A stretch of DNA of 64,000 bases from a virus (Duplodnaviria; Heunggongvirae; Uroviricota; Caudoviricetes), in IMG/VR virus record IMGVR_UViG_3300031087_000527, positions 145,384 through 209,383 of that record; one strand, 5' to 3'. A model generated the notes under the pieces. It saw only the letters and a program-made list of their open reading frames with translations. It made no database searches and was not told the DNA's origin. The number at the start of each line of letters is the position of its first letter. The stretch's first letter is position 1. Shown here piece after piece: positions 12,098-64,000 of the stretch. The translations under genes and the position numbers were made by a program.

Positions 12098-12139
12098 ATC
12101 TTAATAAGTTATTAAATAAAAGCGGCCTAGCCGCTTTTT

Positions 12140-12607
12140 TTAACTTAAAGATAAAGATATTTTATATGTAGTCTTTTTATCTTTTGTGCAGCTTTTTAAG
12201 ATGCTAATAGTTTTATATGGATTATTATAAAATACAGTGCCTGCGGTGGACTCAACTAAACAGTTATTATTATTGTAATCTTTATAGTGAATATTGAAAT
12301 AAGTATTGTCTTTCTCAGGTGTGTTTGGGTTGCGGACCTGTGTGAAGGTGAAATATGTGCTATCAGAGTCTGTGTTTTTATCAAAAAAAGATCCATCGGT
12401 TGTTTCTTTTAAACTTGAGTCTTTTTGATCAAAATAAAAATAATGTTTTTTATTATCGTAAGGAACGTAAAAAGTATGGCTATATCCAATTCCCACGTCA
12501 GGCACAATGCTTAAATTTATTCTTTCATAAACAGGTGTTGCTGATAATACAGTGGAAGAAAATAATGATGCGGATAACAATAAACTGGTTAATATAATTC
12601 TATTCAT
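12140..12607 (-). CDS. secreted protein (155 aa, signal peptide, N/Y/T-rich)
   Basis: Minus-strand ATG preceded by AAGGAC. N-terminus MNRIILTSLLLSASLFSSTVLSA. Confidence 0.6.
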   Translation of the reverse strand: MNRIILTSLLLSASLFSSTVLSATPVYERINLSIVPDVGIGYSHTFYVPYDNKKHYFYFDQKDSSLKETTDGSFFDKNTDSDSTYFTFTQVRNPNTPEKDNTYFNIHYKDYNNNNCLVESTAGTVFYNNPYKTISILKSCTKDKKTTYKISLSLS

Positions 12608-12813
12608 ATTTGTCCTTTTAAAAGTAGTTTAAGTGTATAAAAATAGTATCAAATTTATGAAAAATGTAAATGCATTTAAAAGAGTAATGTTAAGATTTGA
12701 TAATGATTTAAGACAAGTCCTATAAGGTAAACTTAAACAAGATTAGTTTGATGAAAAATGTTTTAATCCATTGGAAAACATGATAAAGTATACGCACTTT
12801 TAAAGGAGATACT

Positions 12814-14718
12814 ATGACATATTCTGAACGTCTTAATGATATTGCAATCGTAAAGCTGGACACTGAAGGCTTCTCATCACTCGATAGCCGCACTAAACGT
12901 CTGGCTTATCATCTGTCAGAAGCGGGTATGTGGGGGAAAGTGATCGGGCTGACTCAGGGATCAAGCGCTAACCTTATCGTTATTCCTGCACTAATCCATA
13001 TGTATAAACATCTTGATAAAGAAACTGAAGCTTTTAAGCAGGTTCGTGATAGTTTATTTATGCTCTTTGCGCACGGTGGTCTTTATCATACCACAACAGG
13101 TGAAAAACTGACACTGCCTCTGGATAGTGAGCAATTTGATGTATTGTGTTCTAATGTTTACTGTTCATTAGCTGCCTTATCGATTGAAATATTTCTTTTT
13201 GAGAACGATACCTATAATCTACCTTTATACCGCACCGTTCAAAAAGACGGCGTAGATGTGGTTAAGCAGTCTGGTGTTAACTTCTATGCTGGCCTTACCA
13301 CCGAGGAAGTAATTGCTTTTCGCAAAGAAGCCTACCCGAAACATGATAATGATGAGATTCCACCTTACGGATTTAACGAGAAACTCCTAAAAAATCATCT
13401 CACGGGTGAGATTAAACGAGAAGTCATCTTCGCTGATGGTCTTTATGGTCGCTATGTTAAAGAAATCATTAAAGAGCTTAAGCTTGCTCTGAACTACACT
13501 GAAAATGAAAAACAACATGCCTCTATTGAGACACTGATTACCTTCTATGAGACGGGTGATGCTGCTGATTTTGATAAGCACTGTGTAGCGTGGACGCAAG
13601 ATCAGGATAGTTCGATTTATTTCGTAAATGGCTTGATTGAATCTTATAAAGATCCGCTAGGTGTGGCGTGTAACTTTGAGAGTTTGGTTGCGTTTAAAAA
13701 TCCAGCACAGACAGCTAAAGTGAAGCGTATCATTGATAATATCCAGTGGTTTGAGGATAATCTCCCGTTTGATAAGCGCTTTAAGAAAGATAAGGCTGTA
13801 GGGCTATCTGCGAGTTCTATCAATGTTATTTCTATGGCTGGAGAAACCTCTCCTGTGCTGCCTTTAGGGATTAACTTGCCTAACAGCGACTGGATTCGTA
13901 AAAAGTTTGGTTCTAAATCCGTTACGTTGTCTAACGTGGATTCCTCACGTAGTAGCTATGATGTGCCATTAACCAAAGCCTTGTATCTGGATAAATATCA
14001 GGATCTGATTAAGCGTTATGGCAATGAGACGGGCATCCTTCATACGGACTTGCATGAGATTGCTGGTCATGGTTCGGGCAAAGTGCTGGACGGCGTTAAC
14101 AGTGATGTTCTGTCTACGTATTACTCTGTCATTGAGGAATGCCGTGCGGATCTTGTGGCGCTTTACTATATCCCGGATGAGAAGCTAAAAGAGATTGGTG
14201 TGTTTGCTGAGGATGTCAATGTTCGCGATGCGGCAATGGCTAAGTATGTAGCGTATTTCACTAATGGCGCTATCGGTCAGTTGCGCCGTGTGCGTTTTGG
14301 CGCTGATCTGACACAAGCTCACTTCAGAAACCGCCAGGTTATCTCTACATGGTTGCTTGAAAAAGCGAAGCCTGAACAGATGGCGATGGTTGTGAAGGAT
14401 GGTCAGTATTTCATTGAAGTGAATGATCTGGATGGTGTTCGCGTTCTGGTTGGTCAGTTGCTGGCAGAGGTTCAGCGTATTAAATCGGAAGGCGATTTTA
14501 ACGCGGCTAAAGCCCTCGTAGAGACGTATGGCACCAAAGTTAATAGGTTGGTTCATAAAGAGGTGTTGGAGCGTGTGAGTGGCTTAGGATTGGCGACAGT
14601 GGTAGGCTTCATGACGCCGATTCTGACACCTAACGGCGATGATATTGTTATTGAATATCAGGAAGACTTCCTGACTCAGCAGATTGAGTTGTTTGAGAAA
14701 TATTTCCTGAAGAAATAA
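12814..14718 (+). CDS. dipeptidyl-peptidase III-like zinc metallopeptidase (MEROPS M49 family), 634 aa
   Basis: AAAGGAGAT SD. HEIAGHGSGK and EECRAD lie about 40 aa apart, matching the M49 signature pair HELLGHGSGK / EECRAE. Confidence 0.85.
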   Translation: MTYSERLNDIAIVKLDTEGFSSLDSRTKRLAYHLSEAGMWGKVIGLTQGSSANLIVIPALIHMYKHLDKETEAFKQVRDSLFMLFAHGGLYHTTTGEKLTLPLDSEQFDVLCSNVYCSLAALSIEIFLFENDTYNLPLYRTVQKDGVDVVKQSGVNFYAGLTTEEVIAFRKEAYPKHDNDEIPPYGFNEKLLKNHLTGEIKREVIFADGLYGRYVKEIIKELKLALNYTENEKQHASIETLITFYETGDAADFDKHCVAWTQDQDSSIYFVNGLIESYKDPLGVACNFESLVAFKNPAQTAKVKRIIDNIQWFEDNLPFDKRFKKDKAVGLSASSINVISMAGETSPVLPLGINLPNSDWIRKKFGSKSVTLSNVDSSRSSYDVPLTKALYLDKYQDLIKRYGNETGILHTDLHEIAGHGSGKVLDGVNSDVLSTYYSVIEECRADLVALYYIPDEKLKEIGVFAEDVNVRDAAMAKYVAYFTNGAIGQLRRVRFGADLTQAHFRNRQVISTWLLEKAKPEQMAMVVKDGQYFIEVNDLDGVRVLVGQLLAEVQRIKSEGDFNAAKALVETYGTKVNRLVHKEVLERVSGLGLATVVGFMTPILTPNGDDIVIEYQEDFLTQQIELFEKYFLKK

Positions 14719-24755: not shown

Positions 24756-25820
24756 TTATGCGGCTGTTCTGTGTTCCTTTTCAATATCATCAAGATCATG
24801 TCGAATATTGTTTAGCGTTTTAGCTGTCTCCTCGGAGTAAGTCGTATTCTCATAGACAGCCATGATGATATTATCAATAGAGTTCTTCATACATTCTATT
24901 TTCATTCGTTGCTCTTTGGATGATGTGCTAATTGTAGAAAGTGCCAGATTAGTTCGCTCTATCATTGTCAGCATTTCATGGATGTAAGCCGCGTTTTTAT
25001 TGTTGAGTTTGAATGTATCTTCTATTTGAGAGGATGTATCATTCACAAGTGCCTTGATTTCCTGAGCAGAATCCGCACAGCTTTTGGCTAACAATCTCAC
25101 TTCATTAGCTACAATTGAAAATCCTCTGCCGTGATCGCCCGCTCTTGCAGCTTCAATAGAGGCATTCAGAGAAAGAAGATTAGTTTTAAAAGCCATCTCA
25201 CTAATAAAGTCGGATATCTTTTTAATCTCCAAAGACTGGTCCTTTATGGTGCTTGTAGAGTTTGTCATAAGTGAAACATTCTCTATGGCTTCCTGAACAC
25301 CAGCAAGCGTCATGGAAGCTAATGAAAAGGCCTGATTGGACTCCTGTTCATTGTGTGAGGCGACCTGATAAAGCTCATTCACGCTGTATGCGGTTTTCTC
25401 AACAGCACGGCTCTGTGTTTCATTTCTGGAGAGTAGTGCGAGATTGCCTTTATCCAGTGAGATAAGACTGTCATTAAGACGCTGTGAGGCTTCCTGCTGC
25501 TGAGTTGCCCATTGGCTTAACATTTCTCTGACTACATCAAGATCAGGAGAGCAAAATGCGCTCTTACAGAAGTCTTTATTGCTAAGGTTATGAATATCTT
25601 TACGTAATAAGGCTAATGGGTTAATCAGATTAACCGTAATGTAATGCCGAATAAAAAGTGACGCAGGTAATAGCAAAAAAGGAATAGCGGAAAATAATAT
25701 CAGAGATGTTGATATATCTCCGGTTAAATAAAATACAAAAGGAATAAAAGCATAAAATGAAAAAATAAATAATACCGATGAAGCAACAGCCCTAACAGAA
25801 ATATCTCTTATGTGTTTCAT
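24756..25820 (-). CDS. methyl-accepting chemotaxis protein-like transducer (two N-terminal TM helices, coiled-coil signalling domain)
   Basis: Minus-strand ATG preceded by AAGGAT. Highly conserved MCP signalling core FKTNLLSLNASIEAARAGDHGRGFSIVANEVRLLAKSCADSAQEI. No large periplasmic ligand-binding domain. Confidence 0.85.
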   Translation of the reverse strand: MKHIRDISVRAVASSVLFIFSFYAFIPFVFYLTGDISTSLILFSAIPFLLLPASLFIRHYITVNLINPLALLRKDIHNLSNKDFCKSAFCSPDLDVVREMLSQWATQQQEASQRLNDSLISLDKGNLALLSRNETQSRAVEKTAYSVNELYQVASHNEQESNQAFSLASMTLAGVQEAIENVSLMTNSTSTIKDQSLEIKKISDFISEMAFKTNLLSLNASIEAARAGDHGRGFSIVANEVRLLAKSCADSAQEIKALVNDTSSQIEDTFKLNNKNAAYIHEMLTMIERTNLALSTISTSSKEQRMKIECMKNSIDNIIMAVYENTTYSEETAKTLNNIRHDLDDIEKEHRTAA

Positions 25821-29916: not shown

Positions 29917-31377
29917 ATGACGCAGACTTACTTTATTAAACACGATTATGACAGAACAGTTCAGCCGTTCTGGAATGAACAGTGTCTTAAAATATCTCAA
30001 AACCTTTTTCTCCCCTGCACCGAAAATAATATCCCTAATTTTAAAACTCATTACCTCTCTTCTTTGATCCGTAAGCTTACACCCGTTCATTCTTATCACT
30101 TTCCTTTATTCTTTAAATCTTATGTTATGTCTGCGCCTGATATTGTGGTTAAAGCCGTAAGGAAAGTGCGCTTTTATTTTACCTCGACTGAACAAAGACT
30201 TAAATATGAGCAAATGATGATGGTTGCTCGCAGAGCCTACAATCTTGCGGTTGATATGTGTAATAACAGAGAATTTATCGATGAGCAGGGGAAACCTGTT
30301 GATATCAGAATTCCCATCAGAGATAAAGTAAAAAAAGAAAGTGCTGAAAATAATTATGTTTTTGACACTAATGTCTGCGATCAGGCTGTCAGGATAGCTA
30401 AGTCTGAGTTTATCACTCTCTGTAAAAATAACAAAAAGAAGAAGAATACAACATTATTCACGAGTTTCTCACGACTAGGCTTCAAAAGCCGTAAAGACAA
30501 AAAACAGACCTTTTCCCATCCCCGGATGGGAAAAGAGGGTTCCGTCTGTATAAAATCGTTGGGAAGCATCAGGCTGACGGAAAAGCTGCCTGATGAATGC
30601 TATGGCAAAAATGTTGAGGTAACAATGGAGTATGGCAGATGGTTCATCTGCGTCCAGAAAAATATAGAGATAAAAGGAAACCGTTTAGATTGTTCCGAAA
30701 GCCAAGGGCCAAATAAAACGGTTTCTGAAAAAGAAGTGAAAGTGATTGCTCTTGATCCGGGAAGCAGGACGTTTTTAACAGGATTCAGCGAGAAAGAAGT
30801 TATCGTTTATGGTAAGGATTATTCTATAAAATGCTTACTACCATTGGCAAAGAAGATGCGTGAGCTGTATTCTTTGCGTGAGAGGTTAAAGAAGCATGAG
30901 CTATACAGAAAGGAAAGCCTGGATAATCCGCAGTGGATAAACGATACGTTTAGGCATATAGAAAACAGCCTGAATAGGCTGTCCTGTAAGCGTCAGGATC
31001 TTGTTAATCATCTGCACAGGACTGTAGTTTATGATATAGTGATGAGCTACGATGTGATTTATCTTCCTGATTTCGAAACCAAGTCTATGGTAAAGACTAA
31101 GGGGAGAAGAATAGGCCGTAAAGCTGTTCATAACATGCTTTCTCTGAGTCATTATATTTTTAAGGAATTTCTGCTGTGGACAGCAAAGAAATACGGTAAG
31201 GAAGTCATTATCGTTAACGAGAGTTATACGAGTAAAACCCAAAGCTGGAACGGAGTGGTAAATGAAAAGCTGGGATCATCGAGGTTGATGAAAGACGGCA
31301 AAAGAATAATAAACAGAGATATCAATGGTGCAAGGAATATTTACCTGAAGCACATATCTCAGTTAACTAACATTTAG
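29917..31377 (+). CDS. tnpB: TnpB-like RuvC nuclease (IS200/IS605 OrfB family), zinc-finger cysteines absent; alternative start 30127 gives 416 aa
   Basis: N-terminal VRKVRFYFTSTEQ (KFRLYPT.EQ-like). RuvC-I VIALDPGSRTF. RuvC-II YLPDFETKSM. RuvC-III NRDINGARNI. Where CxxC...CxxC is expected the sequence reads TSKTQSWNG...MKDGKRI with no cysteine. Confidence 0.85.
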   Translation: MTQTYFIKHDYDRTVQPFWNEQCLKISQNLFLPCTENNIPNFKTHYLSSLIRKLTPVHSYHFPLFFKSYVMSAPDIVVKAVRKVRFYFTSTEQRLKYEQMMMVARRAYNLAVDMCNNREFIDEQGKPVDIRIPIRDKVKKESAENNYVFDTNVCDQAVRIAKSEFITLCKNNKKKKNTTLFTSFSRLGFKSRKDKKQTFSHPRMGKEGSVCIKSLGSIRLTEKLPDECYGKNVEVTMEYGRWFICVQKNIEIKGNRLDCSESQGPNKTVSEKEVKVIALDPGSRTFLTGFSEKEVIVYGKDYSIKCLLPLAKKMRELYSLRERLKKHELYRKESLDNPQWINDTFRHIENSLNRLSCKRQDLVNHLHRTVVYDIVMSYDVIYLPDFETKSMVKTKGRRIGRKAVHNMLSLSHYIFKEFLLWTAKKYGKEVIIVNESYTSKTQSWNGVVNEKLGSSRLMKDGKRIINRDINGARNIYLKHISQLTNI

Positions 31378-31529: not shown

Positions 31530-32432
31530 TTAGTTATCGAGAGAGATAACGGGCATAGTAGGCCTGTCAGAAACGATAACTACCATGAGTTTTTCCACAA
31601 TGCGTTTCTTCTCAGCATCCTCAAAAGACACACCGATCTCACTTTGGATGTTAGCAATAGCATCCTTCACGGTTAATACAGCAGCATCAACAATGGCGCG
31701 GCGACTCTCTGCCATTTTTTCAGCTTGCTGACGCATCAGCATAGGCTGAGCGATTTCTGGCGCATAAGCGATCTTAGTAATGCTGGCGCTGATAATAACC
31801 ACACCGATTTCTTTTAAACGTGTATTAATGCTTTCAATCAGCTTGGTTGAAAACGAACCTAAGTTGTTGCTCAGGGTTTCTTCATCAGCCACATTGCTGT
31901 CAAATGCATGTTGAGTAACAATCGTTCTCAGTTCACTCTCGCTGGCGTTGCGAATAAAATCATCTGGCTTCTCAGCATTATAATGGAACGGAGCAGCCTG
32001 TTCAACACGGTAGTTGACCACCATAGAGACATTCAAGGGAATACCCTTTTTGTCATTGATTTTGGTTTCCTGAGTTTCAAAGGTATTAATCTTGGTGCTG
32101 ATTTTCTCAAAGGAGAAGAAAGGATTGACGAATGTAACACCTTCACCCATAAGTGTGCCTCGGTATTTACCTAAGAAGCTGGCAACCACTTTCTGATTGG
32201 GGGAGATAATGATAAAGCTGTTAAAGAAGAAAATAGCAGCAATGATGCCAGAAATAAAAGCCGTAGAACCATACAGAATAGAGATTTCTTCACGGAATTC
32301 ATTATAGCCATAAGGCACCTGAACCTGAGCGTGCATAACAGCGTAGACGGTAATCGCAATGAAGATAAGTGTCAGCACAACGCCAAGATAGGCTGCACTC
32401 AGATTGGTTTTTTCATCTTTCAAAATATTCAT
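31530..32432 (-). CDS. SPFH/band-7 (stomatin/prohibitin-like) membrane protein
   Basis: Minus-strand ATG preceded by GGAG. N-terminal TM helix, then an SPFH-like core (...VASFLGKYRGTLMGEGVTFVNPFF...NVSMVVNYRV...). Confidence 0.8.
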   Translation of the reverse strand: MNILKDEKTNLSAAYLGVVLTLIFIAITVYAVMHAQVQVPYGYNEFREEISILYGSTAFISGIIAAIFFFNSFIIISPNQKVVASFLGKYRGTLMGEGVTFVNPFFSFEKISTKINTFETQETKINDKKGIPLNVSMVVNYRVEQAAPFHYNAEKPDDFIRNASESELRTIVTQHAFDSNVADEETLSNNLGSFSTKLIESINTRLKEIGVVIISASITKIAYAPEIAQPMLMRQQAEKMAESRRAIVDAAVLTVKDAIANIQSEIGVSFEDAEKKRIVEKLMVVIVSDRPTMPVISLDN

Positions 32433-52778: not shown

Positions 52779-53429
52779 ATGGATGGTTCTACAGCTATTT
52801 TTGATTTTGAGAAAATGTTGGAAAATGAAAGGGCTAAATATAATCGAATGAAAGAAAAAGAAATAATGGAACGAATTGATTTTCTTGAGAAAAATAAGAT
52901 TGAACAAAACGCTCATTATTTTTTGGAAACCAGATTTTGGGGTTTGTTTTTATTATTAAGCTTAATGTTAACAACGCTTTCAGTCAGTTTAATTGTGGTT
53001 TTTCTGACAAAATTATTATTTCATTCATTTGGGGCTACTGTATTTTCTTCTTTTTTAGGCGTGTTGCTTGGCGCATGGTTAAGTATTTTACTATTTGAAA
53101 AAGTTAAGGTAAAAGCTAAAGATAAGTATGAAGTTAAGAAGCTTAAAAAACTGAGGAAAAATATGAATAGTAAGCCTGATTTTTTTGACGAGTCATTCTT
53201 GTCATCGACAGCATCACCTGAGTTGATAGTTGCATTCGAAAAAGAAATGGGCAGGCAATACCTGATTGAGATGTATGTAGCTAATAATGGAGAGGAACTT
53301 ACCAATCAAATGCTGATGGATCATTTTAACAAGAGAGATAGAATCGCTCAGGAAGAAAATAATCTCAGGATACTGTATGAGGACTGCATTAAAAAAGTAG
53401 AAGGTAAACATCTTTTTTGTGCTAAATAG
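52779..53429 (+). CDS. membrane protein (216 aa, central pair of TM helices), paralogue of 53499
   Basis: AAAAGGATAAAAT SD. Conserved C-terminus LIEMYVANNGEEL...LYEDCIKKVE. Confidence 0.8.
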   Translation: MDGSTAIFDFEKMLENERAKYNRMKEKEIMERIDFLEKNKIEQNAHYFLETRFWGLFLLLSLMLTTLSVSLIVVFLTKLLFHSFGATVFSSFLGVLLGAWLSILLFEKVKVKAKDKYEVKKLKKLRKNMNSKPDFFDESFLSSTASPELIVAFEKEMGRQYLIEMYVANNGEELTNQMLMDHFNKRDRIAQEENNLRILYEDCIKKVEGKHLFCAK

Positions 53430-53498
53430 AATATGGGCAATGTATTCGTCGAGTCGAAATATTTTATATTTCCTATAAACAAATATTAAGAGGCCGTA

Positions 53499-54098
53499 AT
53501 GTCTAAGTTTAAAATAATATTGGAAAGAGATAAAGAGGATTACAGGGATGAAAAAGGTCGGGAAATAATAAAACAAATAGATTTTTACAAGAATAATAAT
53601 GTAAAGATTAAAGTCGTAGACTTTTTAAATAACCGATTTCCGAACGATTTTATACAGTTTTTTTTAATATTAGGAATTTTTATTCCAGTTAATCTTTTGA
53701 TGTGCAGTATTATGTATTTATTGTTCAAAAATCAAATGGCTATATCTTTATCCATATTGCTTACGTCTATCATTAGTTTTGTAAGTTTACATTTGGTGAG
53801 TATAAAAGCGAAAGACAAAGAAAAGATAGATAATCTAGAAAGTTATTTTGATCAAGAAAATAATTTTTTAAATGATGAGTTTATGAAAATGCCCGCATCT
53901 CAAGATTTACTTGGTGCGTTTAAAAAAGAAATGGGCAAACAAGCATTGATTGAGGCTTATGTCGCAAATAAAGGTGAAGAGCTAAGCAATGAGCAAATAA
54001 TAGCTTATTATGAAAAGCTAGAGAGTGAAGATCTTGATAAAAACAAAGAGTTTAGATTGCTCTATGAGGACTGTATCAAAAAAGTGGAACTCTGCTAA
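53499..54098 (+). CDS. membrane protein (199 aa), paralogue of 52779
   Basis: AAGAGG SD. LIEAYVANKGEEL...LYEDCIKKVE. Confidence 0.8.
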   Translation: MSKFKIILERDKEDYRDEKGREIIKQIDFYKNNNVKIKVVDFLNNRFPNDFIQFFLILGIFIPVNLLMCSIMYLLFKNQMAISLSILLTSIISFVSLHLVSIKAKDKEKIDNLESYFDQENNFLNDEFMKMPASQDLLGAFKKEMGKQALIEAYVANKGEELSNEQIIAYYEKLESEDLDKNKEFRLLYEDCIKKVELC

Positions 54099-54294
54099 AA
54101 ATTATCATTAATTGAATAATTCTCAACAGCAACAAGATTATATAATAAAAAAGAGGCTTTCGTTTACTCTACAAGGACTGTGTTCAGAAAAGGGAGCTTT
54201 ACTAAAAACCTCAATACGCTTTTTTCATTTAACGCTTGTGCATCATCTCAATAGCTGATATTATGTTGTCATACAAACAGTAAAGAGGTGTATC

Positions 54295-54558
54295 ATGGTT
54301 GAGATTCCTAAGTTAAAAGTAGGCGATAAGGTGCTGGTAAAATGGCACAATGGTTTATATCCTGAAGAAGGCGTGTTTATGCTGGAAGAGTATATGTTCT
54401 GCTTAGGATACTTTGAGTCAGAGGATCATCGTACAATGCATCGGTTCACGCCCCTGTCTGATCTCATGCAACCTGCAGATGACCGTACAGCCCATATGTC
54501 AAACATTGGCAGCTATCCTATCGAGGTTGTGCCTATGTTTGAGCTTGTATCTGAATAA
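54295..54558 (+). CDS. hypothetical protein (87 aa)
   Basis: AAAGAGGTG SD. Confidence 0.75.
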   Translation: MVEIPKLKVGDKVLVKWHNGLYPEEGVFMLEEYMFCLGYFESEDHRTMHRFTPLSDLMQPADDRTAHMSNIGSYPIEVVPMFELVSE

Positions 54559-54606
54559 TCTATAAAGCCCTTTAATGAGCTTTTACTCTATCTAAAAGGA
54601 AAAAAT

Positions 54607-54822
54607 ATGCACAGTAAAACCAATGTTGTTGAAAATCCAGAACAAGACGTTGCAGTTTCTTTTGAGTATCGCGGCTATATCGTCAAGCATGTAACGCTCA
54701 AAGAGTTTGGTGTGCTGAACTGGATGTTTGAGCCTCTGGATAAGATCCATGATGGCGAGCGTGAGTGGCGCGTATCTGAAGAGATGGTCATTGAAGCCAT
54801 TGACGAGTATTCTGAAGACTAA
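54607..54822 (+). CDS. hypothetical protein (71 aa)
   Basis: AAAAGGAAAAAAT SD. Confidence 0.7.
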   Translation: MHSKTNVVENPEQDVAVSFEYRGYIVKHVTLKEFGVLNWMFEPLDKIHDGEREWRVSEEMVIEAIDEYSED

Positions 54823-54882
54823 GGTTGTTCTCTGAAGCTGAGCTTGATATAATAAGCTATACTACTAATAAGAGGATGTATC

Positions 54883-55074
54883 ATGAAGCAAGCTGTTTTG
54901 AATAAAACGCCAGAAGGTAATGGTTATGAAGTGCATTACAATGGCAATACGATTTTGAAATCTACTTATCGGGATGCATGGCGTCTCGTTAATGGCCTGT
55001 TAATGTCTGGAGAGATTGACTCCATCGATAACAAAGAAGTGCCGGAACAATCAGTATTTGTCCGAGCAGCATAA
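54883..55074 (+). CDS. hypothetical protein (63 aa)
   Basis: AAGAGGATG SD. Terminator 55093..55118 (GGCCGCGCTGCGGCC). Confidence 0.7.
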   Translation: MKQAVLNKTPEGNGYEVHYNGNTILKSTYRDAWRLVNGLLMSGEIDSIDNKEVPEQSVFVRAA

Positions 55075-55181
55075 TCAATAAAATACTTATATAAAGGCCG
55101 CGCTGCGGCCTTTTTTTATAAATAATTTGCTCAAGTTTCAATCAAAGGTTATGATGGCTCAATGAATATAAGGAGACAAAT

Positions 55182-56288
55182 ATGCTTGCATTTGGTAAAA
55201 AGACAATGTTCAAAGAACAGGCTGTGGCTACGAGTAGAGCGAAAATAAAACGTAATTTTTTGAAGAATTTTTGCGTTGGGACTATGGTTTTAGTTTGTGG
55301 ACTGGTCTCTTATGATGTTGGTGTTACAGCATCAAATATTAACCATATAAATAATATGGCTGAATATAAGATACAAAATCAGAAATCTCTGGATAATTAC
55401 AGTACCTTTAAAGATCGAGTGATGGCAGTTCCTTATTCGGATGCGCAGTTCAAAAAAGATTTAACCACATTTGAATATATGTATGGTTATAAAGGCTCGG
55501 ATAGCCCCGTTTATAAAAAAATAATAGAGGATGAGAAAAAAAGTTTAAACGTATTATTATATCAAAACTTAGCTAAGGATAATGCTAACAATTTCTATTC
55601 TGATTTATACACTATGACTAAAAGTTATACATTAAAAGATTATATAAATAGAAACAGTGTCGGTCATAAAAAATTTACAGATGATGTCTCAAAGGTGCAA
55701 GGTAAGCATGAAATAGCAGCCATCAAGTATGAAGATGTATTTAATATGAATCAGAAAGAAAGGATTGCTAATATGGCATCCCAAACACTAGGATATTATT
55801 ATAGTAATATCGATAATAAAATGTATCAAAACTTCAGAAATTTACTGGTCGAAAAAGGTTTTAGTGCTAATGCTTATTTTCCTGATAAGGAAAAAGCAGG
55901 AAAATACCATGACCTTTATTATGATTATTTGTATAACTATGAGATGTCTTCTGAAAAGTTGGCTATAAGACAGGATTTCTATGATGATGTTTATAAAAAT
56001 AATCAAACTATCAGGCAATATTATGAGCAAGGCGATTTCAAAAAACTGCGAGAGCTATTTAAAATAGGTAATGGTTTTGCTCAAATAGCAATAACTGATT
56101 ATATCAATGACACAAAAGAAAATAGCAATTTGGGAGAGCCTTTTTATCATCGTTTAGCTCAGCACTTCGAAATGCATCCTGATCTTAAAAAACCCGCTAA
56201 GGTTTACGAAGAGTATACTGGTTCAACTTCTCCAGAAAAGAAAGGCCTCTATGACAGAAGTATTGATACATTTTTGTATATGCCATGA
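55182..56288 (+). CDS. signal-anchored paralogue 1 of 6 (368 aa): basic N-terminus, one TM helix, about 300-aa extracytoplasmic domain
   Basis: AAGGAGACAAAT SD. Motifs VPYSDAQFKKDL, YY..GD.KKLRELFKIGNGF and YTGS.SPEK shared with the next five ORFs. Confidence 0.85.
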   Translation: MLAFGKKTMFKEQAVATSRAKIKRNFLKNFCVGTMVLVCGLVSYDVGVTASNINHINNMAEYKIQNQKSLDNYSTFKDRVMAVPYSDAQFKKDLTTFEYMYGYKGSDSPVYKKIIEDEKKSLNVLLYQNLAKDNANNFYSDLYTMTKSYTLKDYINRNSVGHKKFTDDVSKVQGKHEIAAIKYEDVFNMNQKERIANMASQTLGYYYSNIDNKMYQNFRNLLVEKGFSANAYFPDKEKAGKYHDLYYDYLYNYEMSSEKLAIRQDFYDDVYKNNQTIRQYYEQGDFKKLRELFKIGNGFAQIAITDYINDTKENSNLGEPFYHRLAQHFEMHPDLKKPAKVYEEYTGSTSPEKKGLYDRSIDTFLYMP

Positions 56289-56410
56289 AGATATTTTTTT
56301 CTATTAAATTCTTAAAGAACCACTCGTTGGTTCTTTTTGTTTACATAATAAATTTGGTATATTATCAGCAAAAATAGTATTATTACACTATGATAAAATG
56401 AGGACTATCT

Positions 56411-57502
56411 ATGCTAAAGTTTGGCAATAAAACACTATTCAATCAAAAAATCGCTAGGTCAGAAAAATCTGTTATAAAAAGAAAAACATGGAAGCATATT
56501 GCTGCAGGCGTACTCTGCTTATTTGGAGGAATGGCTACCTATGATGTGGCTGTGACGGCGTCAAACATTAGTCATGTTAATAAAATGGTTGAATACAAGA
56601 TAGCGGACAATGCCTCACTTGATAACTACAGTTCTTTTAAGGCCAGAGTGATGGCTGTACCTTATTCGGATGCGCAGTTCAAAAAAGATTTGAAGACCTT
56701 TGAGTATATATATGGTTACAAAGGCAATGAGAATGTTGTTTTCAAACACTATATGTGGCGTGATCGCGCAGTTGGAAGTAATGTTGAATTGAATGCTATG
56801 CTTGTGATGAATGTTAGGTTTGATAATCCTGGGGAGCTTTATAAAGACATCTATAACTTTACAAAAGGGCGTGATGTTAAGGAGATGACTGATGGAAGAG
56901 AAAATGATTTTTACGGAAAAATTAATGATATTTATAACCAGCATATACCATTTAAAAAGGTTTTTAATAATGCTCAGATGATGAAGTCGATAAGAGCAAA
57001 CATGTCGCTAGGATCTTCTTATAGCTATATTCATAGTGAAAGTAAAATGTATGACAATCTTAGCCAGTTGCTGGTTGAACAGGGGTTTAATCCTCAATCC
57101 TATTTTGCCAGTAAAGAAGATGTCAGAAAAGTGGAATCTATTATTGGTCTTTCTACTAGTGCTGAAAATAAAGTTATATTTGAAAACTATGCTCATCAGG
57201 TAGACAAAAATAACAGAGATTTACGAGCTTATTACGAAAAAGGGGATCTGAAAAAGTTAAGAGAGCTATTCAAAATAGGAAATGGTTTCTCCAAAGTAGT
57301 GGTTTCTGATTATATTGATGGCATGAAAAAAGATTACAATATAGGATATTCTTTTTCATCTTATCTATATCAGAATGAAAGTTTGGGTACAATTAATTTC
57401 CTGAAGCCTGCTGAGTTGTATTCTAAATATACTGGCTCATTAACACCAGAAAAAGAAAAAATATATAAAAAAGATATATTGGATATTTGGTATAGACCAT
57501 AA
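56411..57502 (+). CDS. signal-anchored paralogue 2 of 6 (363 aa)
   Basis: Closest to paralogue 1. A stretch longer than 30 nt, CCTTATTCGGATGCGCAGTTCAAAAAAGATTT, is identical at the DNA level. Confidence 0.85.
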   Translation: MLKFGNKTLFNQKIARSEKSVIKRKTWKHIAAGVLCLFGGMATYDVAVTASNISHVNKMVEYKIADNASLDNYSSFKARVMAVPYSDAQFKKDLKTFEYIYGYKGNENVVFKHYMWRDRAVGSNVELNAMLVMNVRFDNPGELYKDIYNFTKGRDVKEMTDGRENDFYGKINDIYNQHIPFKKVFNNAQMMKSIRANMSLGSSYSYIHSESKMYDNLSQLLVEQGFNPQSYFASKEDVRKVESIIGLSTSAENKVIFENYAHQVDKNNRDLRAYYEKGDLKKLRELFKIGNGFSKVVVSDYIDGMKKDYNIGYSFSSYLYQNESLGTINFLKPAELYSKYTGSLTPEKEKIYKKDILDIWYRP

Positions 57503-57511
57503 GAGGCTAAA

Positions 57512-58585
57512 ATGTTAAAAACTAAAAATATTTTTTATAGAACTATCAGCTATGCTAAAACAAATAGCAGTAAAATCAATAAAGCGTCTCTCCTTAAGAG
57601 AGTTGCTTTAGGTGTCTCACTTTCTATTGCTGCTATAGCCTCTTGGGATGTGGCGGTTAACCTGACCAATATTAAACATGTTGCTGACATGGTTGACTAT
57701 AAAGTGTATAACAACGCTCAGACAAACAACTATTCAAATTTTAAGTCTAAAATGGAGGCTGTTCCTTATTCAGATGAGGATTTTAACCGAGATCTAAACA
57801 TATTTAAGTTAACCTATATTGATGGTAATAAATCTTTTAGAAATACAATAAACTATGGCGATGGTCTTGATACACTTTTACTGCTTAAATACACTTACAC
57901 TGATCCTGTTGGTTATTTAAAAGAGATGTCTTTTGTGAATCAGGAGTCTGTTGATAATCTAAATAATCACAACCCAAGATCAAAACTTAACGCAGAAAAA
58001 ATACAGCGTATTACAGATAAATATAAAATAAAAAGCGATGGGTTTTCTTACGCTGACGATTTACAAGTAAAGAAGCGTGCTAAATCTATATTTGTTGTGA
58101 TGAATAGTGATTTAAATATTGCTGCTGATAATACGTATGCGCCTATTTATGGCAACTTTGAAAGATTATTAAGCGAACATGATATAAACAAAAACATGTA
58201 TTTATGGAGATCAGCTTATATCAAAATGAAGTTTGGAAAAATAAGCGCAAAAGAATATCAGAGTGAACAAGATAAAATAGATAGAGGCGTTGCATTAAAT
58301 ATTGAAACATTAAAGCAATACTATAAGAATGGCGATTTGGATAAGCTAAGGGGAGTATTCCGTTTTGGTAATGCTTTTACTTCTGTAGCAGTAGATCAAT
58401 CTCTAAAAGAAAATGCGCATATAGGCATCCCCATATCTGCTCTGCTTATGACATATTTTGATAATGACTATGATTATTACGATACTATGCAAGAAGGTGC
58501 TAAGGCATATCAGAAGATGACTGGAACACTAACGCCTGAAAAAGAATCGCTTTACGGTAAAGACGATTTTATTCTATGGCACTAA
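57512..58585 (+). CDS. signal-anchored paralogue 3 of 6 (357 aa)
   Basis: 9-nt spacer from the previous gene. VPYSDEDF, YYKNGDLDKLRGVFRFGNAF, TGTLTPEK. Confidence 0.85.
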   Translation: MLKTKNIFYRTISYAKTNSSKINKASLLKRVALGVSLSIAAIASWDVAVNLTNIKHVADMVDYKVYNNAQTNNYSNFKSKMEAVPYSDEDFNRDLNIFKLTYIDGNKSFRNTINYGDGLDTLLLLKYTYTDPVGYLKEMSFVNQESVDNLNNHNPRSKLNAEKIQRITDKYKIKSDGFSYADDLQVKKRAKSIFVVMNSDLNIAADNTYAPIYGNFERLLSEHDINKNMYLWRSAYIKMKFGKISAKEYQSEQDKIDRGVALNIETLKQYYKNGDLDKLRGVFRFGNAFTSVAVDQSLKENAHIGIPISALLMTYFDNDYDYYDTMQEGAKAYQKMTGTLTPEKESLYGKDDFILWH

Positions 58586-58600
58586 ATAAGGGTTAAATAA

Positions 58601-59653
58601 ATGCTTAAAGTAAAAAGTATATTTAATAATGATATAGCCTATAAAGAGAGATCGGCTAAGGTCAGTAAGACTTCTGTTGTTAAAAAAGTAATAGTAGGCG
58701 CAATGTTTACCGTGGCAGGCATTGCTGCATGTGATGTAGCTATATTAAGTGGTGATGTTGCGAAAGTAAATACAGTGGCAAATTACAAAGTAAATCATTA
58801 TAAATCGTTGTCTTCGTATAGCACGTTTAAAGAAAAAATAGACGCTGTTCCTTATACAGATGCGCAGTTTAATCAGGATTTAAAGGTTCTTGATGCTATC
58901 TATAATCATCAGGACAACGTTATGTATAACAAAGTAATGAGCAGCGCTAGTGGGGCTTATGGCTCTTTTTTAGGTATGATGGTGTTAGGAAGTGGTAAGT
59001 ATATTGATCAGGCTGCCACGTATAATAAGCTGCTCCCCTTAACAAAAGATATGCCTGAAAAGGAACTGAAAGATGTAAATCCTGAAATATATAGAGCATT
59101 TGCCTTGGATGAGGCTGTTAAAAAGGATAAAGTAAAGTGGGCTATGAATTCGCTAGCTTCTCTTAAAATGAGTGTGAGCTATGCCTCTTTTGGTGAGGGT
59201 ATAGATTTGAATAAAGGGCTTTATGAAAACATGGAGCGTTATTTCAAAGAAAAAGGATTTGGTGAAAATATTCTTTTCATATCGCCTGACCTTGCTCTTT
59301 CACGAGGTGATAGAAGTAAAGATATTCAAAATTTTTATACGAAGGCAAAAGAATCCACTCAGAAAGCGAATACTGAACTTGAAAGTATTTACCGTTCTGG
59401 TGATAAGGCGAAGCTGAAAGAGCTGCTCCAGATGGCTTATGCTTTCCAATATCGCATAGCGGGAGAGATAGCTCAGAAAACATATAATGTAGGCTGGGTT
59501 GAGCCGCCTCTTTCATTTCAGCTTATGGGAAATGCTGAAAATGGTTATGGTTTAGCGAAAAGTATAAAATGGATTGCTCAGAAAAATGGCGATTATACGC
59601 CTGAAAACGCTATATATTATGATAATGATTTCTTTTTTTCGTTATATTACTAA
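58601..59653 (+). CDS. signal-anchored paralogue 4 of 6 (350 aa)
   Basis: 15-nt spacer. VPYTDAQF, YRSGDKAKLKELLQMAYAF, GDYTPEN. Confidence 0.85.
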   Translation: MLKVKSIFNNDIAYKERSAKVSKTSVVKKVIVGAMFTVAGIAACDVAILSGDVAKVNTVANYKVNHYKSLSSYSTFKEKIDAVPYTDAQFNQDLKVLDAIYNHQDNVMYNKVMSSASGAYGSFLGMMVLGSGKYIDQAATYNKLLPLTKDMPEKELKDVNPEIYRAFALDEAVKKDKVKWAMNSLASLKMSVSYASFGEGIDLNKGLYENMERYFKEKGFGENILFISPDLALSRGDRSKDIQNFYTKAKESTQKANTELESIYRSGDKAKLKELLQMAYAFQYRIAGEIAQKTYNVGWVEPPLSFQLMGNAENGYGLAKSIKWIAQKNGDYTPENAIYYDNDFFFSLYY

Positions 59654-59664
59654 GGAAATAAGAT

Positions 59665-60717
59665 ATGTTAAAAACAAAAGGTATGTTTGAGCAAAAATAT
59701 ACATATTCTAATGCATCAAAAAATAAAATCGCAAAGGCTTCATTGTTAAAACGTGTTGCTTTAGGTGTTGGCTTGACTATTGCGGCAATTACATCATGGG
59801 ATTTGGCTCTAATCAATACATATGCTGTTAAAATAAATGACTTAGCAGACTATAAGGTGAGTCATTATGCTGGCTTAACAAGCTATGATAACTTTAAAAA
59901 ACAGATAGAGACTGTGCCTTATTCGGATGCGCAATTTGACTATGATTTAAAGACATTAGACTATCTCTATGGGCATAAAGATAACCTCATGTATAGAAAA
60001 ATGATTAGCTACTCAAATAGTGGATATGGTTCTTTTTTAGTCTCTGCTATAGTTAATAACTTTGAACATAAAGATCCACATAAGACATATAAAAAACTAT
60101 TACAAGAAACGGCAAGTATGCCTAATACAAAAGAAATACCATCTAATCTTTATTCTTTTACCAGTAGAGATATAACCCCTGAGAATAATAAAGATATCGC
60201 AAGAGTAAGGATGTCAAGCCTTTTCAAGTTGGGTAATAGTTATGGCTCTTTTGGTCCGAGTATAACTATAAACAGAGCAATATATGATAATATGAATACG
60301 TATTTAAAAGAGAAAGGATATAAAGAGAATCTGTTATTTATCGATCCTAATCTTTCTTATAATCGAGAAGAGCTGACGAAAACAAAATCACAGTCAATTA
60401 AATATCTTGAAGAAATAAGGCATTCTCAAGATAAAGCAAATGCTGAGATAGAAAAGTATTATCGATCAGGAGATTTGGTAAAACTTAAGGAGCTATTTAA
60501 AATGGCTCATGCTTTCACTTACAATATCGTTGAACAGCCTATGTCTTATATAAATAAAAATGCGCCATCCTCAAACCTAATATCTTCTATATTATTCGAC
60601 AGGATATATAATGGATCTGTAATTTACGATAGTGCTGGTTTTATTTCTAAGGTTAAAGGTGAGTATACTCCTGAGAAGTCTGTCTATTATGAAAACCCCT
60701 TTGGCCTTTATTACTGA
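59665..60717 (+). CDS. signal-anchored paralogue 5 of 6 (350 aa)
   Basis: 11-nt spacer. VPYSDAQF, YYRSGDLVKLKELFKMAHAF, GEYTPEK. Confidence 0.85.
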   Translation: MLKTKGMFEQKYTYSNASKNKIAKASLLKRVALGVGLTIAAITSWDLALINTYAVKINDLADYKVSHYAGLTSYDNFKKQIETVPYSDAQFDYDLKTLDYLYGHKDNLMYRKMISYSNSGYGSFLVSAIVNNFEHKDPHKTYKKLLQETASMPNTKEIPSNLYSFTSRDITPENNKDIARVRMSSLFKLGNSYGSFGPSITINRAIYDNMNTYLKEKGYKENLLFIDPNLSYNREELTKTKSQSIKYLEEIRHSQDKANAEIEKYYRSGDLVKLKELFKMAHAFTYNIVEQPMSYINKNAPSSNLISSILFDRIYNGSVIYDSAGFISKVKGEYTPEKSVYYENPFGLYY

Positions 60718-60726
60718 GGAAATACA

Positions 60727-61830
60727 ATGATTACACTAAAAAGAAAAGAGAATATTTTTGATAAAGATATATCACATAAAAACAACTCAGTGGTCAAATC
60801 TAAAGGTTTTTTCAAGAAATCCTTTATATCATTGTCATTGCTTTGTCTGACGGCTGTATCCTTAGATATAGGAACGTCAGTATCTAATGGCGTAAAGATG
60901 TCAAACTTTGCTGATAGTAGAGCAGCTTACTTTGAAAGCGTTGAAACCTATTCAGCATTCAAAAATAAGGCTGATGCCGTTCCTTATTCTAAGAGTGATT
61001 TTGAGAAAGATATGGCGTTATTCAAGTTTATTTATTTGGATTCTCGCAACAATACATTATTTACGTATATGAATGAAACAAATACTTTTGATGCCTTTGT
61101 TCGAGCAAAATATAAATATAATGGAATAGATAATACTAAACATCTGGCAGCGCTTATGGGGATGCTTTCAAAAGATCAATATTTTTCTGAAGGGAATGAA
61201 AATATACAAAGTCTACAGAATAATATTAGTCTTTATCAAGATAAACTAAAAAATAATTTGAGCAAAAAAGAATCTCTCGATTATGTGCAATATTCTTTTT
61301 CAACAAGAGATGGTTATACGAAAGATCCATCCTTATCTGAAAAAATGTATAATAACATAATACAGTATTCTAATAAGCAAGGACTGGATGCCAATCTCTT
61401 TATGTTAAACCCCACTCAATCTCAGAAGTATGTTGAGCTTAAAAACTCTTTAGCTTATGGCTACACGAAAGATGATGCCTTTATTAAAAAGACGTTTAAT
61501 GAAATAAATGAACTTAAAGAGGCTAGAAGTATTGGACTTCAAGAAATGATAACAGCTTACGATAAGCATGACTATGATAAACTGTATACAATGTTTAAGA
61601 CGTTTAATGCTTTTTATACGATTATCTCTAAGGACAGGCCTCAAAACACAAGTCCTGAAATTGAAACCTATCTGACAAGTAAAATCTATATTTCAGAGAA
61701 GGATAGAATGGATTGGGCTATTACAAATAATGTTGATAAGGTTTATCGAATTCTAAATGAAAACCAGAAAGGAACGATATACGGTGATGACGAAGAATCC
61801 AGTCTGCGCGGGTGGTTTGTGGCTTTTTAA
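60727..61830 (+). CDS. signal-anchored paralogue 6 of 6 (367 aa), most divergent
   Basis: 9-nt spacer. VPYSKSDF. Same TM topology. Confidence 0.8.
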   Translation: MITLKRKENIFDKDISHKNNSVVKSKGFFKKSFISLSLLCLTAVSLDIGTSVSNGVKMSNFADSRAAYFESVETYSAFKNKADAVPYSKSDFEKDMALFKFIYLDSRNNTLFTYMNETNTFDAFVRAKYKYNGIDNTKHLAALMGMLSKDQYFSEGNENIQSLQNNISLYQDKLKNNLSKKESLDYVQYSFSTRDGYTKDPSLSEKMYNNIIQYSNKQGLDANLFMLNPTQSQKYVELKNSLAYGYTKDDAFIKKTFNEINELKEARSIGLQEMITAYDKHDYDKLYTMFKTFNAFYTIISKDRPQNTSPEIETYLTSKIYISEKDRMDWAITNNVDKVYRILNENQKGTIYGDDEESSLRGWFVAF

Positions 61831-61976
61831 AAATAAAAAAACAGGAAAATTTCTTATTATTTGACAAAGTTTATTTAACTCCTAAATTATTATTAATAAA
61901 TATTTATCCATTATTTAAAAATATGGAATGGTGTTTTAACTTATTTTATTACTAATACTACCAATCAGGAGTTTAT

Positions 61977-63947
61977 ATGAAAAACTTGCTACAAAGTTTA
62001 TTTATCACTGCCAATACACTAACAACAACCAAAGATATATCCTATGTTATGCGAGGTGATGATAATAATTACTATATTTTCCTTGAGATTTATAACTTTA
62101 ATGATCAAGATAAAATGACGCTTAGGCTTCTTAAACAAGAGAGTATTCATAACGATATTTTACTGCTTGAGATTGAAGATAAGGAAAAAGAAATATCAGA
62201 TTTTAGCAATGATACGTATGGCTTGTCTGATTTGGTTAAAGAAAAAAATAAAAAAATAAATATTGATAGCGTTGGAAAAAATAAAAAATGCTATCTTATT
62301 TTAAAAGATGACTGTGAGCAGAGAATAAAAAAAGAGTTTTTAAATATATTGGTAATAATACAGAAATACCAATCAAAATGTCTTGATTGCGAAGATGCCT
62401 TAATATTTATCCCTTTTGAAGAGAAGTTTGATAATAATGAAATAAGAAAAGATGTTGGTTCTAATAAAGGCTGTAGGTTTATAGAAAAATCAGGTCAGCC
62501 GTTCTATTTTGAATCTTGCTCCGAGGCGCAATACTCATGGATAAATGCGCTTGTTTACCAATACCCAAACCAAAGAATACAGTCAAAAATATTACTTAAT
62601 GCTTTGAATCTTTCTTTCTTTTCTAATGAGACTGAAAAGAAAGATGAGGTTCCTTTTATGGCTATTATTAGTAAAGATCATGGGGCTAGTGGATTTATTG
62701 ATACGTTAAGCTATGGATCAAAAGAAAAGATACCTGAAGGAGAAGTATTTAGTGGAAAATATAGTATAAATAATGAAAGTGCGCACTATATTAATCCATT
62801 AGATATTTGTTTTGGGCATGATAAGCCATTAGGAGCTGAGATGTTCACAATTAGTCAGGTTTTATCATATATAACAGGCAATGAAATTCATGCTGGACTA
62901 TTGCTGGATATTGTTGAGAGTCTATATATACCCAAATATGTAAAAACAGAAAGTATACCGGAAATCAAAACACTCCTTTTAAAAGAAGGTGAGAATAGTG
63001 AAGAAATTTCATGGATAGAAATAAGAAATATTCTTGCGCGTTCTGGTAAGAACGAATTATTTGCGTGGTATGCGCATAAGCAAGCGATGCCTACACTTAA
63101 GGATTTTATGAATGCTTTAGGTAAGAAAAGAGATGGTGAATTTAAAGTCTTCGATAAAGATTTTGAGAGGGCAATTTTAAAAGCCGAAAAAATTCTTAAA
63201 AATAATGTATTCGCCTCATGTGCTACGAATATTAATATAGATTATAGAGAGCATATAACGCATATGATTCTCTCTAAAAATGAAAAAGAAGCTGAATTGG
63301 GCTATATTGTTGCCTCATCCCATCTTTTTAAACAATTTTTACTTAACTCATATGATGATGTTTCTAATATAAATGAAGATTGTAAGCCAATTATGAGAAA
63401 ATATATTAATAAGTTTAAAAATGCAGCAAAGCGTGTAGTGCTAGATGACGCAGATATAGCTTTTTCAAAAAGGAGCAATAATTCGCTTCAACACATTATA
63501 AATATTTTTGCAAGAGAGGCTCGTAAGTGTAAAATGGATTTGACTATTTTATTAAGTGAAGAAGACTATAAAAATGAAAAATGCGATGAGTTTAAACAGT
63601 TTATTACGTCTTCTTTCAAAATAACCTGTCATGAAGATAAAAACAGCATTTATTCAACACCAATCCTTTCAAATAAAAATAAGGATATAGTATTAAATAG
63701 TTATTTCGACACTAAATCAGGAGAGATAAATCCAGTGCTTTATTTTAATCTTTCTCCAGTAGAGTATTGGGCTGTAACTACAATACGAACAGAAGTTAAC
63801 TTGAGAAATAAGCTATACGCTATAACTTCAGTGGGAAAAGCCAGAAAAATACTTGCTGATGCTTATCCAGAAGGGCTTTTAATGGCTCAATATAATGAAG
63901 ATTACAACGAAAATGAAGTCTTAGAGTATCTGCTTCAACGAGTATAA
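61977..63947 (+). CDS. large hypothetical protein (656 aa) downstream of the six-paralogue array
   Basis: CAGGAG SD after a 146-nt AT-rich spacer. Terminator 63955..63976 (GGCCACCTAGTGGCC plus T-run). Confidence 0.85.
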   Translation: MKNLLQSLFITANTLTTTKDISYVMRGDDNNYYIFLEIYNFNDQDKMTLRLLKQESIHNDILLLEIEDKEKEISDFSNDTYGLSDLVKEKNKKINIDSVGKNKKCYLILKDDCEQRIKKEFLNILVIIQKYQSKCLDCEDALIFIPFEEKFDNNEIRKDVGSNKGCRFIEKSGQPFYFESCSEAQYSWINALVYQYPNQRIQSKILLNALNLSFFSNETEKKDEVPFMAIISKDHGASGFIDTLSYGSKEKIPEGEVFSGKYSINNESAHYINPLDICFGHDKPLGAEMFTISQVLSYITGNEIHAGLLLDIVESLYIPKYVKTESIPEIKTLLLKEGENSEEISWIEIRNILARSGKNELFAWYAHKQAMPTLKDFMNALGKKRDGEFKVFDKDFERAILKAEKILKNNVFASCATNINIDYREHITHMILSKNEKEAELGYIVASSHLFKQFLLNSYDDVSNINEDCKPIMRKYINKFKNAAKRVVLDDADIAFSKRSNNSLQHIINIFAREARKCKMDLTILLSEEDYKNEKCDEFKQFITSSFKITCHEDKNSIYSTPILSNKNKDIVLNSYFDTKSGEINPVLYFNLSPVEYWAVTTIRTEVNLRNKLYAITSVGKARKILADAYPEGLLMAQYNEDYNENEVLEYLLQRV

Positions 63948-64000
63948 ATTGCTGAGGCCACCTAGTGGCCTTTTTGTCGTTCTATAAAATCAGTAACACA

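Follow-up and report, generated by a model that had tools for sequence, protein, structure and literature searches.

Here we describe a tandem array of six paralogous genes in a 64,000-nt stretch of viral DNA (hereafter the window; positions 145,384 to 209,383 of the IMG/VR record IMGVR_UViG_3300031087_000527). The six genes encode an orphan family that was not described before and that is without known relative in sequence or fold. They represent, with high confidence, an old lineage-specific expansion in which each copy is under purifying selection. As to function, the products may be binding proteins that face the periplasm and act in takeover of the envelope or in exclusion, a reading by analogy to which we assign a probability of about 35%. 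The array comprises six consecutive open reading frames (ORFs) of 350–368 aa on the plus strand, separated by gaps of 122, 9, 15, 11, and 9 nt, and both the coordinates (Table 1) and the spacing agree exactly with a first-pass annotation made from the sequence alone. The hidden Markov model (HMM) of the family matched each of the six ORFs with E values of 1e-108 to 1e-153, and their alignment contains 21 invariant columns, indicating that the ORFs are homologous far beyond chance and are true paralogues. The motifs AVPYSDAQF, YY..GD..KLRELFK.GN.F, and TG.LTPEK, which had been picked out by eye, are all seen in this alignment. Copies 1 and 2 are 43% identical overall, less than the ~60% first estimated, and copies 4 and 5 are 40% identical, with the other pairs at 17–31%; copy 6, placed below 25% at first reading, indeed shares 17–21% identity with the remaining copies. 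Copies 1 and 2 have in common an identical tract of 32 nt (55431–55462 = 56660–56691; first counted as 33 nt), synonymous positions included, which encodes PYSDAQFKKDL and could be either a short gene-conversion tract or the trace of a nucleotide-level constraint on this box. A search of the window ORFs with the family HMM found no further copies in the window.

Comparison across relatives, which the first-pass annotation had proposed, revealed that the copy number differs. Six copies are present in the window and in an identical ENA contig (L002), five in L001 and L013, three at the syntenic position of a 341.6-kb IMG/VR genome (L008), two at a second locus ~26 kb away in the same genome, three in a distant subgroup (L010 and L012), and one in L016 and L017. 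In the neighbour-joining tree, copies 2–6 each have 1:1 orthologues in L001 and L013 at 100% bootstrap, and copy 6 joins the distant subgroup of 311–342-aa proteins at 94% bootstrap; the 1:1 orthology together with the deep placement of copy 6 indicates that the array is old. Copy 1 is sister to the entire copy 2 orthogroup and copies 4 and 5 are sisters of each other (100% bootstrap in both cases), while the two-copy locus reflects a separate lineage-specific duplication. An orthologue of copy 1 (P0002) that is 95% identical lies on another contig. Two genes of 342 and 308 aa in L003 were tested as divergent family copies and rejected.

Analysis of the window against L001 showed that the array copies are 59–85% identical to their orthologues, with ratios of nonsynonymous to synonymous divergence (dN/dS) of 0.19–0.27. 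The individual ratios are 0.22 for copy 2 (dS 0.75), 0.27 for copy 3 (84.6% identity), 0.19 for copy 4, 0.27 for copy 5 (59.4% identity, dS 1.08), and 0.24 for copy 6; most of the real neighbour genes show 69–99% identity and dN/dS of 0.02–0.21. Pooled 25-codon windows gave dN/dS of 0.12–0.46. Positive selection was rejected, as dN/dS is below 1 over whole genes and in every 25-codon window. The first-pass description of the family as actively duplicating is therefore not borne out: copies 2–6 are 1:1 orthologous, and their dN/dS never locally exceeds 1. The pattern fits subfunctionalised copies on a common scaffold, not active duplication or an ongoing arms race. The same data bear on the idea that the genes do nothing for the phage and are repeated ORFans, selfish or neutral, that recombination at repeated regulatory hairpins alone maintains. 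This idea would agree with the hairpin-bounded cassette behaviour of copy 1 and of two genes of 656 and 638 aa downstream, and with a GC content below that of the neighbours. The purifying selection on every copy, the intact orthologues in three diverged genomes, and an architecture that persists down to 15% identity speak against it, and the dN/dS values largely refute this idea, leaving it very improbable.

A basic N-terminus, one hydrophobic helix, and a domain of ~310 residues, the architecture noted at first reading for the six copies, were seen in every family member. In the window copies, eight or nine Lys/Arg residues precede a single hydrophobic segment near residues 30–50, which has a Kyte-Doolittle 19-residue score of 1.7–2.2, and a second hydrophobic segment is absent. 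Among the 35 collected members, the sole strongly hydrophobic stretch lies near residues 21–50 (score 1.5–2.3), with scores elsewhere of at most 1.2. The 15 residues flanking this anchor contain on average 5.2 Lys/Arg before and 0.9 after it, and the bias toward the N-terminal side holds in 34 of 34 full-length members. This charge bias predicts an N-in/C-out orientation, with a basic cytoplasmic tail of ~29 residues and a periplasmic C-terminal domain. The 19-residue core of the anchor consists of 26–47% Gly/Ala/Ser/Thr and has a Hessa sum of -0.1 to +4.4 kcal/mol, the values below +2 being confined to two distant members, and an acidic residue is kept at the C-terminal end of the helix. The simplest reading of these features is an uncleaved membrane anchor, but a releasable segment of the signal-anchor-release (SAR) type is possible. 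Two other readings of the N-terminus were rejected. The lipobox [LVI][ASTVI][GAS]C is not conserved (IAAC occurs in copy 4 alone, and the others have Tyr, Trp, or Leu at the Cys position), which rejects a lipoprotein, and neither an AxA motif nor a signal-peptidase site is conserved in the alignment, which rejects a cleaved signal. Phe at position 10 (K-x-[ILM]-F) is invariant in the otherwise fast-evolving, low-confidence cytoplasmic tail (alignments A2 and A3), and the C-terminus is aromatic-rich in nearly all members (YY, WYRP, VAF, LYW, TVW), even at 15% identity. The invariant Phe and the aromatic C-terminus may be docking motifs for partners on either side of the membrane.

The predicted topology matches that of the T4 holin T, which has a short cytoplasmic N-terminus, one transmembrane domain, and a large periplasmic domain. 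In addition, the anchor, with up to 47% Gly/Ala/Ser/Thr and marginal on the Hessa scale, resembles the releasable, weakly hydrophobic N-terminal SAR domain of the antiholin RI. The array proteins might accordingly be lysis-timing components, namely holin/antiholin-type sensors tuning lysis or lysis inhibition. We consider this quite unlikely, since no match to Pfam Phage_holin_T or any other holin family was found at E ≤ 1, the periplasmic domain is about twice as large as that of holin T and has an unmatched all-alpha fold, and no endolysin or spanin was seen near the array, nor either of these or an antiholin in any of the fetched loci. Unlike holin T and RI, the family is multi-copy and without adjoining lysis genes, and five or six conserved, non-redundant copies are unexpected for a lysis clock. 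In contrast to SAR proteins with an attached lysozyme or a known antiholin domain, it has no match to muramidase, transglycosylase, or RI families and no catalytic Glu among the invariant columns.

An AlphaFold2 model of copy 2, built on a 22-sequence alignment, has a predicted local distance difference test score (pLDDT) of 83.6 and a predicted template modelling score (pTM) of 0.81. The modelled protein is entirely alpha-helical, and a 48-residue helix (residues 24–71) is predicted to pass from the anchor into the domain. The ectodomains of the family are cysteine-free and 13–16% aromatic, with pI values ranging from 5.7 to 8.9, and surface charge differs among the copies. Three conserved helical blocks (residues 70–94, 209–233, and 275–299) are the common scaffold of the ectodomain, and the variable regions (residues 120–208 and 234–274) show only 12–19% identity among the paralogues.

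The family had not been recognised at first reading, and library, sequence, and fold searches likewise gave no known relative. Profiles from Pfam, PHROGs, PADLOC, and NCBIfam had no significant match to the six copies, and at E ≤ 1 Pfam-A returned nothing for five of them; a polysialyltransferase match of copy 2 (15.6 bits; cut-off 23.3) was rejected as noise. The sequence-profile search of the PDB gave only chance matches (E ≥ 0.012), and the fold of the copy 2 model was unmatched in the PDB and BFVD. The profile search and structure prediction that the first-pass annotation had suggested thus found no homology to a structural-protein family in PHROGs, Pfam, the PDB, or BFVD. The array was also unmatched in annotated phages, plasmids, and complete E. 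coli genomes, which were searched at the nucleotide and protein level with distant members among the queries, and relatives are encoded by none of 185,579 GTDB species genomes. A word-indexed search of 5.8 billion proteins yielded 17 family clusters, and an exhaustive HMMER search of 1.84 billion representatives yielded 23 matches, one of them spurious. The genome and metagenome scans used alignment A2, the broad alignment A3 being too degenerate. Members of the distant subgroup retain the architecture plus the VPY(S/T)D and LR.LFK..N boxes.

The divergence of the paralogues on one scaffold also invites comparison with immunity-gene clusters, of which, by established knowledge (type VI secretion system, colicin), diverged tandem paralogues with variable surfaces are typical. 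On this comparison the array proteins would be immunity-like periplasmic binders against non-phage envelope attack, or counter-defence proteins against membrane-associated immunity or envelope abortive-infection effectors. The predicted periplasmic location and the differing surface charges agree with such roles. They are nevertheless unlikely, as PADLOC and Pfam gave no match, the domain is two to three times the typical size of an immunity protein, and neither a cognate toxin nor a defence gene was seen nearby.

Comparison of the window with L001 and L013 revealed how the locus differs at its left end. The T-run of the upstream hairpin leads straight into GTTTACATAATAAATTTGG in L001 and L013, whereas in the window copy 1 and its terminator stand between the two, indicating that copy 1 is a discrete cassette of ORF and hairpin. 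The indel junctions of copy 1 and of the 656- and 638-aa genes all lie at the T-runs of GGCC-core hairpins (window, L001, L013, and L002), and an equivalent of the right hairpin is found directly 3' of the array in L001 and 3' of the single 656-aa homologue in L013. The hairpin family AGGCC-N5-11-GGCCTTTT has three matches in the window against 0.01 expected, and two of these bracket the array and the 656-aa ORF. The copy number of copy 1 and of the 656/638-aa genes thus changes through hairpin-bounded cassettes; copies 2–6 are without internal hairpins. The leader of copy 2 contains blocks of 19 and 34 nt that are identical in the window, L001, and L013 despite a dS of 0.75 in the adjacent gene, and the promoter-like site in the three genomes is TTGGYA-N18-TATTAT. 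After the hairpin before copy 1, the corresponding site is TTGCTC-N17-TATGAT.

A strongly recurrent, phage-specific promoter-like motif, gcTTGTGCA-N17-TATA(A/C)T, occurs at ~12 intergenic sites of the window (for example at 7939, 17375, 20261, 21970, 22365, 22798, 35425, and 54236), the core TTGTGCA being intergenic in nine of its 14 occurrences. It matches the early consensus of KVP40 and nt-1, TTGYVH-N17-TAWWAT, and is not found immediately upstream of copies 1 and 2, the sites of which are near but outside this consensus. The T4 early motif GTTTAC and the MotA box were too rare to inform, and the T4 late-promoter consensus TATAAATA was rejected as evidence of timing, as its 12 matches, compared with 7.6 expected, are no enrichment and include just one intergenic site on the plus strand. 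In the hyperplastic regions of T4-type phages, promoter early stem-loop (PeSL) cassettes carry ORFan genes that differ among close relatives, with stem-loop terminators followed by sigma-70-like promoters (PMC2839356, PMC4122927). The array locus is like them in that genes are gained or lost between relatives with junctions exactly at conserved hairpin T-runs. It is unlike them in that strict hairpin-plus-promoter composites are few (three or four in the window), the promoter-like sites by copy 1 are off-consensus, and copies 2–6 would form a plain operon. The locus therefore resembles PeSL-mediated shuffling, a resemblance and not demonstrated membership.

Two proteins of the window match PHROGs (E = 1e-64 and 1e-75), and one of them has homologues at 31–38% identity in 97 phage records, which belong to Rak2-like jumbo phages (CBB, GAP32, Serratia phage BF, and Erwinia phages) and KVP40-like vibriophages. 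Two collinear anchors are separated by ~23 kb in the window and by ~24 kb in CBB (270–295 kb), where the counterpart stretch consists of small hypothetical genes interspersed with tRNAs. The homologues and the collinearity indicate that the window is accessory sequence of an uncultured jumbo phage in the T4 superfamily, with a host range that is probably Enterobacterales. The neighbourhood is of the same type as, and collinear with, the accessory tRNA-rich region of CBB (PMC5259590); unlike the window, CBB is without the array family, which is absent from all 50,697 annotated phage records searched. Near-identity searches of annotated phages, plasmids, and complete E. coli genomes also left the window unmatched. 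Relatives of the family are confined to phage-like contigs. Among these are a 227-kb contig that was binned with a Serratia assembly derived from the metagenome of an insect-gut enrichment (PMC10665472), a contig that NCBI lists under Shigella flexneri, and a 341,648-bp viral genome of IMG/VR. The family is thus restricted to one uncultured clade of Enterobacterales-associated jumbo phages. Some of the family-bearing contigs are very large, namely 1,021,904 bp (JGI Ga0122742_100002), 982,256 bp (NCBI ACARGJ010000001.1, labelled Shigella flexneri), and 866,249 bp (the window lineage). The 341,648-bp genome corresponds to ~500.8–842.5 kb of the 1.02-Mb contig, and the matching coordinates identify it as an internal segment and not a concatemer unit. 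Megabase-scale phage-like genomes, elements flanked by host DNA, and misassemblies are all possible explanations of the large contigs.

This setting bears on a role of the family in morphogenesis or in the virion, in which the paralogues would take up distinct structural positions, either as assembly factors tethered to the membrane or as proteins that are packaged into or decorate the giant virion. Paralogous structural families are frequent in jumbo phages, each copy of the array is strongly conserved with none dispensable across three lineages, and the late-promoter-like TATAAATA lies upstream of copy 1. However, that motif is not enriched, similarity to structural entries of PHROGs, Pfam, or the PDB was not found, the tRNA-rich accessory region that holds the array is collinear with a part of CBB that is non-structural, and a copy number of one to six among relatives is at odds with a fixed stoichiometry. 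We regard a virion role as improbable.

The reading that we favour is that the array encodes periplasm-facing binding proteins. Early in infection, host RNA polymerase would transcribe copies 2–6 as one operon from the conserved sigma-70-like promoter, with copy 1 as a separate transcription unit. The products would insert into the host inner membrane, where each paralogue, through its variable surface, would have its own binding target in the periplasm or envelope. Such binding would serve to take over the envelope or to protect the infected cell, as by excluding other phages at the DNA-entry step. The retention of five or six non-redundant copies points to subfunctionalised specificities and argues against simple dosage. 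The closest analogues are Imm and Sp of T4, which by established knowledge are likewise phage-encoded, served by host-type promoters, located at the inner membrane or in the periplasm, non-enzymatic, and accessory; Sp (Spackle) is an all-alpha periplasmic binder. In contrast to Imm and Sp, the array family has ~310-aa domains and five or six paralogues per genome, and shares no sequence or fold similarity with them.

Several observations weigh against this interpretation. No homology points to exclusion, or to another function, for the family. The known exclusion proteins, Imm with 83 aa and Sp with 97 aa, are far smaller and single-copy. By the Hessa scale, the hydrophobicity of the anchor is no more than marginal, so that SAR-like release into the periplasm or failed insertion is possible. 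Copy 1 is preceded, at a distance of 58 nt, by an exact match to the T4 late-promoter consensus TATAAATA, and late expression of this copy is possible. An ongoing arms race has left no sign, dN/dS never exceeding 1. A bolder form of the periplasmic-binder reading, possible yet doubtful, is that the family is a new fold class acting as a multi-paralogue 'envelope guard', in which each copy would recognise, by way of its variable helical surface, a different incoming-phage component or host envelope machine. If true, such a guard would give a long-cycle giant phage broad-spectrum exclusion or envelope control.

Downstream of the array, after a gap of 146 nt, stands the 656-aa ORF reported in the first-pass annotation. 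Its 638-aa paralogue lies just past the end of the window (L002 17770–19686; 38% identity, E = 8e-138), and each of the two ORFs is followed by a GGCC-core hairpin. The TTGACA of the spacer before the 656-aa ORF is retained in the homologous spacer of L013. The 656-aa family has seven clusters among 5.8 billion proteins, none with a Pfam domain, and the ORF itself had no match in Pfam, PHROGs, PADLOC, NCBIfam, or PDB sequences; a weak tblastn match (24% identity) was to a hypothetical protein of a Dolichospermum phage. The AlphaFold2 model of this ORF is unreliable (pLDDT 42.5). VirB4/TraC/HerA-like motifs seen by eye in the pair (INPLDICFG, RVVLDDAD, and REARKCKMDL) make an ATPase a tentative candidate assignment, against which stand the missing P-loop and the lack of any profile match. 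L013 has one gene of this type and L001 and L008 have none; the absence from relatives indicates that the 656-aa ORF is not an obligate partner of the array.

Upstream of the array, a tandem pair of transmembrane proteins forms the third variable-copy family of the region. The two proteins have a central hydrophobic region and a common C-terminal LYEDCIKKVE motif and are unrelated to the array family; two copies are present in the window, two in L001, one in L013, and none in L008. Their dN/dS of 0.31–0.40 is the highest among the real genes of the region. The three variable-copy families (52779–63947) have a GC content of 0.28–0.36 and a GC content at third codon positions (GC3) of 0.24–0.31, compared with 0.38–0.43 and 0.32–0.42 in the conserved neighbours (12814–52556), which suggests another origin or another mutational regime. 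The window also contains 12 scattered tRNA genes in all, Phe(gaa) and Arg(tct) being duplicated and one having the four-base anticodon agaa, to which ARAGORN gives no amino acid (9688–9764, plus strand). This last tRNA sits between tRNA-Arg(cct) and the second tRNA-Phe(gaa) and could be frameshift-suppressor-like or degenerate. A 486-aa ORF (29917–31377, plus strand) has a Cas12f1-like TNB domain of the TnpB type (E = 5e-12), and four further genes are unusual cargo for a phage (Table 1). Near the two-copy locus of the related giant phage, a Bundlin/PilS-type pilin-like protein (L009 2315–2860, minus strand) and two adjoining cREC_REC receiver-domain proteins (L003/L009 ~12084–13964) are encoded.

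Table 1. Features of the window, in order of position
Feature	Coordinates	Strand	Remarks
Ankyrin-repeat protein	10357-11343	-	Unusual phage cargo
M49 (DPP III-like) peptidase	12814-14718	+	Unusual phage cargo
Methyl-accepting chemotaxis signalling-domain protein	24756-25820	-	Unusual phage cargo
SPFH/Band 7 protein	31530-32432	-	Unusual phage cargo
Transmembrane-protein tandem pair	52779-53429, 53499-54098	+	216 and 199 aa, 36% identical
GGCC-core hairpin terminator	55093-55117	+	9 pairs (6 G-C) and T-run; ends upstream small-gene operon; left boundary of variable segment
Copy 1 cassette	55118-56338	+	Leader, ORF, and own terminator; absent from L001 and L013
Copy 1	55182-56288	+	368 aa, bitopic family member; family HMM E = 2.9e-136
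Intrinsic-terminator-like hairpin 3' of copy 1	56314-56338	+	AAAGAACCACTCGTTGGTTCTTT then T-run
Leader/promoter region of copies 2-6	56339-56410	+	TTGGTA-N18-TATTAT at 56354-56383
Copy 2	56411-57502	+	363 aa; source of structure model
Copy 3	57512-58585	+	357 aa
Copy 4	58601-59653	+	350 aa; sister of copy 5
Copy 5	59665-60717	+	350 aa; of all copies farthest from its own orthologue
Copy 6	60727-61830	+	367 aa; deepest-branching paralogue
Terminator-free spacer	61831-61976	+	Promoter-like TTGACA-N16-TAAATT at 61861-61888
656-aa ORF	61977-63947	+	Orphan family unrelated to array; first of tandem pair
GGCC-core hairpin terminator	63954-63974	+	Bounds the variable segment, as far as it lies in the window, on the right

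Orphan families of paralogues are commonly met in the hyperplastic regions of jumbo phages. The array demonstrates no new mechanism and gives no evidence for a new kind of system; it is a phage accessory family of uncharacterised function. Within these bounds, the locus clearly exemplifies, beyond the classical T4-like phages, how cassettes are gained and lost at conserved terminator hairpins. The clean architecture, the five or six copies under purifying selection, and the restriction to one clade make the family easy to test by expression, and this AlphaFold-confident orphan family is a tractable target for a new periplasmic activity of giant phages.

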